A stretch of DNA of 64,000 nucleotides, taken from Dehalococcoidia bacterium (GTDB taxonomy: Bacteria > Chloroflexota > Dehalococcoidia > Bin125). Of this stretch, positions 23,503 to 25,242 are shown in pieces. Position numbers and translations under genes: made by a program. Within the stretch, counting starts at the first letter, position 1, and each line of letters opens with the position of its first letter. The notes below the pieces were generated by a model. It was not told where the DNA came from and ran no database searches. It saw nothing but the letters and a program-made list of their open reading frames with translations. The DNA is taken from positions 972,806 through 1,036,805 of the forward strand of contig CBDCPP010000001.1 of the NCBI GenBank assembly GCA_965220315.1. Direction: 5' to 3'.

Positions 23503-25242
23503 GTGCGAAAGTGGACGCTCGGAGTGATGGCCATGGTGTTGGCCATGGTGTTGGCCGTCTCGACCCTCACCAGTGTCGCCGCCCAAGAGGAGCCCCCTGA
23601 GCCCGAGACTGCGAACGTCGACGTGACCGTGTGGCGTCTCGTCGCTGACCCATCCCTGTTGTATGTCAGCACACGTCCCGAGGGCGGCAGCTGGCGGACC
23701 TTGAATACGCCCCTGGACATGTCGGCCTTGAGCAGTTCGGGTAACTTCCACCAGAGCAATGCCGTGCGGGTGCGGGTGCCTCTGACGGGTGGCGGAGCAG
23801 CGAACGTCGACGTGACCGTGTGGCGTCTCGTCGCTGACCCATCCCTATTGTATGTCAGCACACGTCCCGAGGGCGGCAGCTGGCGGACCTTGAACACACC
23901 CCTGGACATGTCGGCCTTGAGCAGTTCGGGCAACTTCCACCAGAGCAATGCCGTGCGCGTGGCGGTGCCCCTGGCAGCGCTCCCCACCTACACGTGCATC
24001 GAGGCATCAGGACATTCCCCCCTGCATAGTGCGGTGCATGCGACTAACACTCAGCTTGTCAGAGTTATCGCTGCCTCATGCCCACAATACTTGGACCGGG
24101 TGAGCGACAATTACTTTTACGATCAAACACCACTCAGCCTTGCAATTGGGCGCGGGGACTCAGGAATAGTACAAATTCTCATAAATGCTGGTGCCGACCC
24201 TGATACGAGAATCAATCCCGCATTCAGGGTCGGGACACACCTCACCTATGCCATTGGGTTGAATGAAGACGAGATCGTCCAGATTCTCCTCGACGGGGAT
24301 GCGGACCCCAACGTCATCGACACAGAACAGTTCTACAACCAGACGCCACTCAGTCTGGCGATTGAGGCTGCCAACGAAGACCTATTGCGGAACCTGATCG
24401 CCGCAGGCGCAGATCCCAACCAGAAGATCAATCCTGCCTTTAGGGTTGGGACCCACTTGACCTATGCGGTTGGACTGGGCGACACAAATGTCGTGCAGAT
24501 TCTCCTCGACGCCGAGGCGGATCCCAACGTCATCGACACGGAACAGTTCTACAACCAGACGCCACTGAGTCTGGCGATTAAGGCTGCCAACGAAGACCTG
24601 TTGCGGAACCTGATCGCCGCAGGCGCAGATCCCAACCAGAAGATCAATCCTGCCTTTCGGGTTGGGACCCACTTGACCTATGCGGTTGGACTGGGCGATA
24701 CAAATATCGTGCAGATTCTCCTCGACGCGGAGGCAGATCCCAACGTCATCGACACGGAACAATTTTATGACGAATCACCCTTGAGCCTTGCGGTCAAGGC
24801 TCAAGACGAGGCGATGGTGCGTATTCTCGTCGATGCAGGCGCGGACCCTAATCAGAAACTGGATCAGTTCAATGACGTAAGTCCGCTCGATATCGCAAGC
24901 GAAGAAGGCTATACGGAGATTGTGCAAATTCTCCTCGCCGGGGCCGCGAGTGTTCCCCCTGGAGAGGCGCCCGAACCGTCCTCAAGCACGCCATCACCAC
25001 CCCCAACCTCCACGGACGGTGATTGCACTGTCGGCCTCGTGGTCAGTGCTGGCGAGAGTTGCGCCTACCCGGGTACGTCGGCCGAGTTCTCGGTGGACAG
25101 CGCCGGACGCGGACACTTCCTGGTCTTCACATCCGGGACCTCAATCTCCCTCCAGGATGCACAAGTCAACGGTGTTCCGTACAACTTCGAGGCCAGCCGA
25201 CAAGCCGACGGAACCTGGATCATCACAGCGGTTGGGAGTTGA
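23503..25242 (+). CDS. secreted ankyrin-repeat protein. Signal peptide, duplicated 63-aa N-terminal module, at least 6 ANK repeats, Pro/Ser/Thr linker, and a roughly 70-aa C-terminal domain with two Cys
   Basis: MRKWTLGVMAMVLAMVLAVSTLTSVAAQ signal. ANK consensus (TPLSLAIKAANEDLLRNLIAAGADPNQ). Near-identical nucleotide tandem duplications inside the gene. Confidence 0.85.
   Translation: MRKWTLGVMAMVLAMVLAVSTLTSVAAQEEPPEPETANVDVTVWRLVADPSLLYVSTRPEGGSWRTLNTPLDMSALSSSGNFHQSNAVRVRVPLTGGGAANVDVTVWRLVADPSLLYVSTRPEGGSWRTLNTPLDMSALSSSGNFHQSNAVRVAVPLAALPTYTCIEASGHSPLHSAVHATNTQLVRVIAASCPQYLDRVSDNYFYDQTPLSLAIGRGDSGIVQILINAGADPDTRINPAFRVGTHLTYAIGLNEDEIVQILLDGDADPNVIDTEQFYNQTPLSLAIEAANEDLLRNLIAAGADPNQKINPAFRVGTHLTYAVGLGDTNVVQILLDAEADPNVIDTEQFYNQTPLSLAIKAANEDLLRNLIAAGADPNQKINPAFRVGTHLTYAVGLGDTNIVQILLDAEADPNVIDTEQFYDESPLSLAVKAQDEAMVRILVDAGADPNQKLDQFNDVSPLDIASEEGYTEIVQILLAGAASVPPGEAPEPSSSTPSPPPTSTDGDCTVGLVVSAGESCAYPGTSAEFSVDSAGRGHFLVFTSGTSISLQDAQVNGVPYNFEASRQADGTWIITAVGS
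23611..23975 (+). repeat. 2 x 189-nt near-identical tandem duplication inside the ankyrin gene (63-aa module ANVDVTVWRLVADPSLLYVSTRPEGGSWRTLNTPLDMSALSSSGNFHQSNAVRV)
   Basis: Copy 1 from 23611 and copy 2 from 23800, with only about 5 nucleotide differences. Confidence 0.85.
24291..24800 (+). repeat. 216-nt tandem repeats (2 full copies plus a partial third), each encoding a pair of ankyrin repeats
   Basis: Units start at 24291, 24507 and 24723. Copies 2 and 3 are nearly identical at nucleotide level. The antisense ORF 24382..24762 is an artefact of this repeat. Confidence 0.85.

Follow-up and report, generated by a model that had tools for sequence, protein, structure and literature searches.

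A predicted exported, modular ankyrin-repeat protein encoded on a tRNA-Lys island of a probable sponge-associated Tepidiformaceae chromosome

The window analyzed here, a stretch of 64,000 nucleotides from the chromosome of a Dehalococcoidia bacterium (contig CBDCPP010000001.1, positions 972,806 to 1,036,805), harbors an open reading frame (ORF) at 23503..25242 on the + strand. The ORF encodes a 579-amino-acid (aa) protein with ankyrin (ANK) repeats, and two of its segments consist of nearly identical tandem units. The locus thus raises the question of what kind of protein this is, how its repeats came to be so alike and what it may do for a bacterium that carries it beside an integrase. The analysis points, with somewhat better than even confidence, to an exported modular "eukaryote-like" ankyrin protein of sponge-associated Tepidiformaceae, carried on a tRNA-Lys island, which would be displayed through its end modules and present a host-binding solenoid. 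The protein begins with a stretch that resembles a signal peptide, followed by a pair of 63-aa modules, nine ankyrin repeats of 36 aa each, a linker rich in Pro, Ser and Thr, and a C-terminal domain of 74 aa with two cysteines.

The end modules and the ankyrin core

The two modules behind the leader, termed N-modules here, were delimited by repeat finding, alignments and AlphaFold2 modeling to residues 37-99 (copy 1, 23611..23799, + strand) and 100-158 (copy 2, 23800..23976, + strand). Tandem Repeats Finder reported the corresponding 189-nt array (x1.9, 23611-23973) with 95% matches and a score of 670. Over the first 158 nt of the unit the copies differ at four sites (97.5% identity), all of them third codon positions, and the protein is identical across the first 54 aa of the two modules. 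The AlphaFold2 model of the pair (pLDDT 87, pTM 0.77) is all-beta, with five strands per module. The N-module belongs to no Pfam or NCBIfam family; weak Pfam matches (CBM_25 at E 0.04, DUF2773 and GTF2I) were under threshold and were disregarded. A sequence-profile comparison of the pair with the PDB gave nothing below E 0.6, and the fold had no significant match in the PDB or BFVD, the best Foldseek match in the PDB having an E of 0.035 and a TM score below 0.35.

The family survey comprised the top 120 matches to the entire protein. The N-module occurs twice in 96 of these, as an adjacent pair in every case (96/96), and as a single or fragmentary module in four more (P0003, P0014, P0015 and P0125); all full-length orthologues possess the pair. 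The first copy begins at residue 20-45, directly behind the leader, in 69 proteins, and a leader-type N-terminus was recognized heuristically in 55 of 69 members of the family. Behind the pair stand mutually unrelated payloads, which include ANK, LRR, trypsin-like, M60 and M1 peptidase, RCC1, NHL, cadherin, CAP and nuclease-like proteins, with trypsin-like payloads accounting for 23 and LRR for 8 of 86. In addition, some giant cadherin/FN3 proteins carry the pair at their C-terminal end. Searched against 1.84 billion representatives, a profile built on it retrieved 547 clusters with E<=1e-3. The 43 genome loci with N-module relatives all came from Chloroflexota metagenome-assembled genomes (MAGs), mostly Tepidiformaceae, with several loci per chromosome. 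Most of these genomes are complete 2.4-3.8 Mb chromosomes designated "Tepidiformaceae bacterium", and the remainder consists of Dehalococcoidia or Chloroflexota bins, with IRC1 and COS3 among their names. A search for a shared neighbor gene around the 43 loci revealed no flanking ORF cluster in more than 7 of them, which argues against co-located dedicated machinery.

An alternative duplicated N-terminal module was observed in P0017-P0021 (residues ~37-143; GRIEFGFQPEG..RILP.SRFFP...WL.SS), where it precedes the same ANK core and C-terminal domain. It too has no Pfam or NCBIfam family. Kinship of the two modules was rejected, as the hhalign profile-profile comparison returned a probability of 0.1 and they were taken to be unrelated.

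The C-terminal 74-aa domain (C-domain; 25018..25242 on the + strand, stop codon included), delimited by alignments and AlphaFold2, is predicted as a small all-beta structure with a pLDDT of 93.9. It contains two conserved cysteines, and the alignment showed C18, Y20, G33, G55, Y58, A62 and W70 to be invariant. No significant match to Pfam, NCBIfam or a solved structure was obtained, and only 26 further database proteins, all short, matched the domain. The LRR proteins P0025 and P0026 end in this domain as well, and in fragments FN3-like sequence precedes it. The top nine Foldseek matches were beta-prism II (monocot mannose-binding) lectins with E values of 0.3-0.7 and TM scores of 0.39-0.47, none of them significant. 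The sugar-binding motif of beta-prism II lectins is QxDxNxVxY, and this motif was not seen when the C-domain sequence was read by eye. Assignment of the C-domain to these lectins was therefore rejected on the non-significant fold match (best E 0.3, TM 0.43) and the missing motif.

Comparison of the ANK protein P0005 with the LRR protein P0025, whose repeats are of the plant type, brought the two ends together. The leader and N-module pair of these proteins are 72% identical over 198 aa, and the linker and C-domain, including the TPQVVQQ tail, are 84% identical over 110 aa, with unrelated centers between them. Since the ends are alike and the centers unrelated, the core was swapped inside a constant frame. 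Judged from these alignments, the frame (leader, N-module pair, Pro/Ser/Thr linker and disulfide-capable C-domain) is reused by the lineage around exchangeable ANK or LRR cores, and the window protein is one combination out of interchangeable parts. The front half alone, i.e., the leader and N-module pair, precedes the trypsin-like, M60 and M1 peptidases and the RCC1, NHL and cadherin proteins.

The core of the window protein is an ankyrin solenoid of nine 36-aa repeats (residues 170-483, 24010..24951, + strand), identified by Pfam ANK families and by the repeat register. PF00023 scored 137.3 bits (cutoff 21.1) over eight stretches and PF12796 scored 134.9 bits (cutoff 27.3), so that tandem repeats of the Pfam clan Ank are present above the gathering threshold. 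In the register read by eye, repeats of the types TPLSLAI... and THLTYAVG... alternate; the scaffold is invariant and variability is concentrated at positions 14-19, 22-23 and 33-36. Within the solenoid, two near-identical 216-nt units (u0, 24274-24489; u1, 24490-24705; together 24274..24705, + strand) each encode one ANK repeat pair. Tandem Repeats Finder placed the 216-nt array (x2.3) at 24274-24761 with 94% matches and a score of 885. The two units share 204 of 216 nt (94.4%), and the units on either side show only 51-62% identity. A match to Legionella Dot/Icm Ank effectors (NCBIfam NF0430xx) was discarded, the best score being 83.6 bits for AnkY against a cutoff of 600 and arising through the ANK repeats only.

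The predicted Sec-type signal peptide covers residues 1-27 (23503..23583, + strand) and was recognized by heuristics only: an n/h/c layout composed of MRK, a 21-residue hydrophobic stretch and a cleavage site between VAA and QEE, with K/R at positions 2-3, a best 15-aa Kyte-Doolittle window of 2.55 and a small-x-small pattern before Q. The Pro/Ser/Thr-rich linker, read from the translation, comprises residues 484-505 (24952..25017, + strand). The initial annotation had proposed a secreted ANK-repeat protein with a signal peptide, a 63-aa module without an assigned function that is duplicated almost perfectly (2 x 189 nt, ~97%), repeat pairs encoded by near-identical 216-nt tandem units, and a Pro/Ser/Thr linker followed by a Cys-containing C-terminal domain of ~70 aa. 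This layout is in agreement with the Pfam scores, the heuristic leader pattern, the unit identities, the residue boundaries and the searches without significant match reported above.

The ORF starts with GTG (23503-23505), and a GAGG Shine-Dalgarno motif lies 5 nt upstream (23494-23497; the two elements span 23494..23505, + strand). Orthologues begin at the matching position with MRKW, MKKW or MTKW, which supports this start; the closest database protein, the gene call P0001 on a 1.53-Mb contig, is 100% identical to the window protein and places the start 10 codons later. A candidate sigma-70-like promoter, TTGCCA-N17-TATAGT, is located at 23403..23431 (+ strand; 10/12 match). It carries no statistical weight, as one such site was found in the 3-kb region and 0.9 would be expected by chance. 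In L046, a relative ~92% identical in DNA, the candidate is conserved apart from the loss of 1 nt; upstream of the L001 orthologue it is not found.

Concerted evolution and copy-number change

The initial annotation had taken the high identity of the tandem copies as a sign of very recent duplication, and this dating did not stand. At the protein level, N-modules are on average 87% identical within a protein and 75-76% between proteins, with no difference between like and unlike positions. At the DNA level, identity within the gene is 0.957 in the window, 0.963 in L001 and 0.907 in L002, as compared with 0.82-0.92 for orthologous copies. In a neighbor-joining tree of module DNA from ten genes, the copies pair by gene in six of the eight two-copy genes. 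The synonymous (dS) and nonsynonymous (dN) divergences are 0.13 and 0.016 between N-module copies 1 and 2, and 0.17 and 0.025 between ANK units u0 and u1; dS to the orthologues is 0.48 (L001) and 1.07 (L002). Copies within a gene are thus more alike than orthologous copies, synonymous sites included. As the pair is family-wide, the copies cluster by gene and dS is not near zero, the high identity reflects an old duplication that has been homogenized. The duplications took place before these species diverged, and gene conversion or unequal crossing-over has since homogenized the copies. Whole-gene dN/dS is ~0.15-0.17, and the protein sequence is under purifying selection; the linker is the fastest-evolving segment, with a dN of 0.28 against L001 and 0.65 against L002.

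The genomic context of the orthologues was obtained via P0002, P0008 and P0387. The syntenic relative L046, ~92% identical in DNA, carries the same island at the same site. Its protein (P0387) and that on a 2.56-Mb contig (P0003) are ~96% identical to the window protein in the shared parts and contain one N-module and one 72-aa ANK pair fewer. The single units of L046 are mosaics of the two window copies, which rules out a single clean crossover as the origin of the one-unit form. Within the ANK gene, the window and L046 differ in length at four places, all of them gains or losses of tandem units. The leader contributes to this variation: the 12-nt unit GTGTTGGCCATG, repeated x2.8 at 23524-23556 (Tandem Repeats Finder), falls in the hydrophobic core of the signal peptide (MAMVLAMVLA) and is present in one unit fewer in both L046 and L001, so that leader length too is repeat-polymorphic. 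Elsewhere, the orthologue of another species (P0014/L038) has one N-module, copy 2 being absent, and P0010, from a short 2.6-kb contig, has one ANK pair fewer. The homogenizing recombination process also changes copy number between relatives, and the variable copy number anticipated by the initial annotation is borne out by the shorter forms in L046 and P0003. Separately, the short P0003 and P0388, a full-length paralogue resembling P0002, appear to lie together on one chromosome-size contig of 2,562,480 bp; one genome may therefore carry two copies of the ANK gene.

Disrupted forms of the gene were also encountered. In L046, a 10-nt duplication right behind the cleavage site (L046 about 7700-7760) causes a frameshift that cuts the leader off from the remaining protein. 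Further orthologues are truncated or frameshifted, namely, P0015 with a frameshift in the C-domain and P0016/L003 with a split ORF (L003 2899-4661). This recurrent disruption suggests frequent inactivation or switching of the gene.

Two other explanations of the repeats have to be set against homogenization of an old pair. Very recent, gene-specific duplication of the 189-nt and 216-nt units would account for the high identity of the module core and the ANK units, and a duplication after the split from L046 would likewise leave that relative with one copy each, a mosaic of the copy states in the window. It is nevertheless improbable: the pair is found in all 96 two-copy members and in every full-length orthologue down to a dS of ~1, the copies have diverged by 0.13-0.17 rather than ~0 at synonymous sites, their pairing by gene in six of eight orthologues is the signature of repeated homogenization, and the one-copy forms are a minority found in two unrelated lineages (L046 and L038). 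An assembly artefact, be it false duplication in the window or false collapse in the relatives, is scarcely credible. Such a collapse could underlie the short variant P0010, given its 2.6-kb contig, but the copies in the window differ at 4-12 sites that are all compatible with an open frame, and repeats of 189-216 nt are far below long-read length. The two-copy layout moreover recurs in at least eight independent assemblies, complete 2.4-3.8 Mb chromosomes among them, and the short form occurs in two (a 21.8-kb and the 2.56-Mb contig).

The tRNA-Lys island and its surroundings

The gene lies on an island bounded by copies of the 3' end of a tRNA gene. The tRNA-Lys (CTT) occupies 18063-18138, and the repeat copy at the left junction (18093-18148) consists of the last 46 nt of the tRNA and 10 nt of flank; tRNA and junction together span 18063..18148 (+ strand). 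A tyrosine recombinase, the integrase of the island, is encoded beside it at 18521..19381 (+ strand; Pfam PF00589 at 1.7e-26, PHROG 1 integrase at 4.6e-61). The right junction, at 25441..25496 (+ strand), is a 56-nt copy of the tRNA-Lys 3' end with 89% identity, 200 bp past the stop codon of the ANK gene, and a third copy, 80% identical, lies at 26261-26316. The three copies indicate a tandem arrangement of the island (~18139-25496, 7.4 kb) followed by a 0.8-kb remnant (25497-26316). The gene had been proposed to be carried on an island, and the tRNA, the integrase and the direct repeat of the tRNA 3' end support this. The GC fraction is 0.69-0.71 at 18-22 kb, around the integrase and a DEAD-box helicase, 0.55 in the ANK gene and ~0.63 elsewhere; this unevenness suggests a mosaic origin of the island. 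Core genes flank the region, with ThrRS, an MMPL transporter and a solute-binding protein upstream and EamA, sulfate permease and LepA downstream.

The distant orthologues are placed elsewhere: L001 among insertion sequence, toxin-antitoxin and restriction-modification genes, and L002 among ordinary genes. Homology to L001 extends from 40 nt inside the coding sequence to 17 nt past it. No attachment-site copies of the tRNA-Lys were found around the orthologues fetched at that point, and tRNA scans of the orthologue loci revealed no common tRNA neighbor; hence, the tRNA-Lys island context is specific to the lineage of the window and L046. An empty integration site was not found among the relatives compared.

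Further observations were made around the island. A 20-nt motif, CACCACCACGCTTCGAG(G/A)CG, stands behind the third repeat copy and behind the tRNA-Leu (26302-26321 and 26484-26503). In L046, a second island (10569-17029) is present right behind the tRNA-Leu, where the window has EamA; it contains genes for an integrase with an Arm-binding domain, AlpA, Rep_trans, an N6/N4 methyltransferase and a restriction endonuclease. The cluster of tRNAs is a hotspot for integration. Two stretches of the window have no counterpart in L046: 12160-16258, with an MMPL transporter and an MpaB/Lcp-like oxygenase gene, and 22687-23334, ~650 bp just upstream of the ANK gene. A 157-aa membrane-protein ORF (22901-23374, - strand) is located in the latter stretch.

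Proposed function and relation to known systems

In the favored reading, the leader would direct Sec export with cleavage after VAA27, and, the cell being monoderm, the protein would come to lie outside the membrane without a dedicated secretion system. The N-module pair would hold it on a conserved envelope component, a wall polymer or the S-layer, in the manner of SLH-type modules of other monoderms. Such a tether is proposed because the modules are terminal, tandem and highly conserved across paralogues and occur on exoenzymes as well as adhesins. The C-domain may bind a glycan. The nine-repeat solenoid would then bind a sponge protein and dampen phagocytic uptake or digestion, a role suggested by its invariant scaffold with few variable positions and by ANK proteins that lower phagocytosis elsewhere. 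Tepidiformaceae reportedly occur at high prevalence in marine sponges, and cultured Tepidiforma is monoderm, with peptidoglycan and an S-layer (PMC10284905). Classical secretion systems are mostly missing from sponge MAGs with many eukaryote-like repeats (ELRs) (PMC8163846), and export from a monoderm cell without such a system would fit this pattern. ELR proteins of sponge microbes are reported to confer evasion of phagocytosis (Nguyen, Liu & Thomas 2014, Mol Ecol 23:1635, as cited in PMC8163846), and the secreted phage protein ANKp lowers phagocytosis (bioRxiv 10.1101/608950).

Several points weigh against this interpretation. The leader is predicted from its heuristic n/h/c pattern alone, the localization and host target are proposed by analogy, and anchoring by the N-module is argued only from its position, its conservation and its pattern of payloads. 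Comparison with Pfam, NCBIfam and the PDB gave no sequence or fold match of the N-module to SLH or other wall-binding modules, no conserved gene adjoins the 43 N-module loci, and the lectin-like resemblance of the C-domain is not significant. Several orthologues are frameshifted, so that the gene is dispensable in some lineages. The assignment of the window to the chromosome of a sponge-associated Tepidiformaceae member is drawn from the record names of the relatives and from the literature.

Some extracytoplasmic ANK proteins of bacteria have housekeeping roles, and the window protein might likewise act on its own envelope or on other microbes, for example, as a scaffold or chaperone for exoenzymes, with the N-module as a spacer or pro-domain. 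The commonest partners of the N-module are indeed proteases and not eukaryote-like repeats. We consider this unlikely, since 75% identity across paralogues with unrelated payloads is unusually high for a spacer, modules at C-termini are at odds with a pro-domain, the payloads are rich in host-interaction types (LRR, RCC1, NHL, cadherin, CAP and M60 enhancin-like), and all carriers are Chloroflexota MAGs, several of them with sponge-derived names. Prophage cargo, i.e., a secreted ankyrin protein encoded by a phage and akin to the "Ankyphage" ANKp, is far less plausible still. Secreted phage ANK proteins do occur in sponge viromes (bioRxiv 10.1101/608950), and the island has an integrase beside a tRNA and att-like repeats; its PHROG matches, however, are limited to the integrase and the DEAD-box helicase, with no structural or packaging genes. 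The phage database returned generic ANK matches only (<30% identity), neither the N-module nor the C-domain occurs in IMG/VR viral contigs, and the orthologues reside in non-phage contexts. A phage origin was rejected on the PHROG, phage database and IMG/VR results.

As an ANK protein of a sponge symbiont, the window protein is of a known kind. It resembles the sponge-symbiont ANK proteins of Nguyen, Liu & Thomas (2014), as far as they are described where cited in PMC8163846, in its multiple ANK repeats, its N-terminal export signal (predicted here) and its membership in an ELR class enriched in sponge MAGs; compared with that description, it adds the N-module pair and the C-domain and has 36-aa repeats and a monoderm Chloroflexota source. 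With the Ankyphage ANKp (bioRxiv 10.1101/608950) it shares ANK repeats, carriage on a mobile element and, as predicted here, a signal peptide and the absence of a transmembrane segment, but the gene is not phage-borne, and its product has flanking modules and roughly three times the length. The Legionella Dot/Icm effectors AnkY and AnkX are comparable as ANK-repeat proteins of a host-associated bacterium, recovered by an NCBIfam match through the repeats; the window protein reaches 83.6 against 600 bits, and it has a predicted Sec leader instead of a type IV secretion signal and no type IV secretion context.

Other parallels concern the frame and the mode of evolution. Short tandem wall-binding modules of the SLH type stand at the termini of many monoderm exoproteins. 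Like them, the N-modules are tandem units of ~55-65 aa at the N- or C-terminus, right after the Sec leader, on unrelated exoenzymes and adhesins of one lineage; they differ in number (two, not three) and have no similarity to SLH in sequence or fold. Concerted evolution and variable copy number of repeats are known from surface proteins such as the streptococcal alpha C and M proteins and from Wolbachia ANK genes. The present gene shares with these the in-frame tandem units of ~200 nt kept alike by intragenic recombination and a length that varies between strains, but each of its arrays holds just two copies, and there is no sign of antigenic selection. Polymorphic toxins and effectors (PMC3482391) also combine constant end modules with a swappable part, which is here the ANK or LRR center; the variable part is thus a central binding domain rather than a C-terminal toxin, and immunity genes are absent.

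The N-module family, the C-domain, the alternative N-module and the constant frame around swapped eukaryote-like cores appear to be undescribed, a limited literature search having turned up no description of these modules. The interest of the locus lies mainly in the frame modules and less in the repeats emphasized by the initial annotation. The locus further illustrates, cleanly and in nature, how a symbiosis gene evolves in concert and changes its copy number, with both states in syntenic genomes. No genomic signature of sponge symbionts is better known than ankyrin and other eukaryote-like repeat proteins, and in Tepidiformaceae, an abundant sponge lineage, such proteins share an exported frame composed of a predicted Sec leader, a conserved double module and sometimes a common C-domain. 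The two small, well-predicted domains, the N-module and the C-domain, provide a testable handle. A wider and more tentative possibility, which we hold as doubtful at present, is that the N-module pair, with or without the C-domain, serves sponge-associated Chloroflexota as a device for display or delivery that is specific to their lineage. The device would represent a new fold by which Sec-exported proteins are tethered to the monoderm envelope or passed on to the host, with eukaryote-like cores (ANK, LRR, RCC1, NHL and cadherin) and proteases plugged in by recombination at the conserved module DNA. If true, this would address how symbionts without type III or type IV secretion systems present eukaryote-like proteins to their host (PMC8163846).

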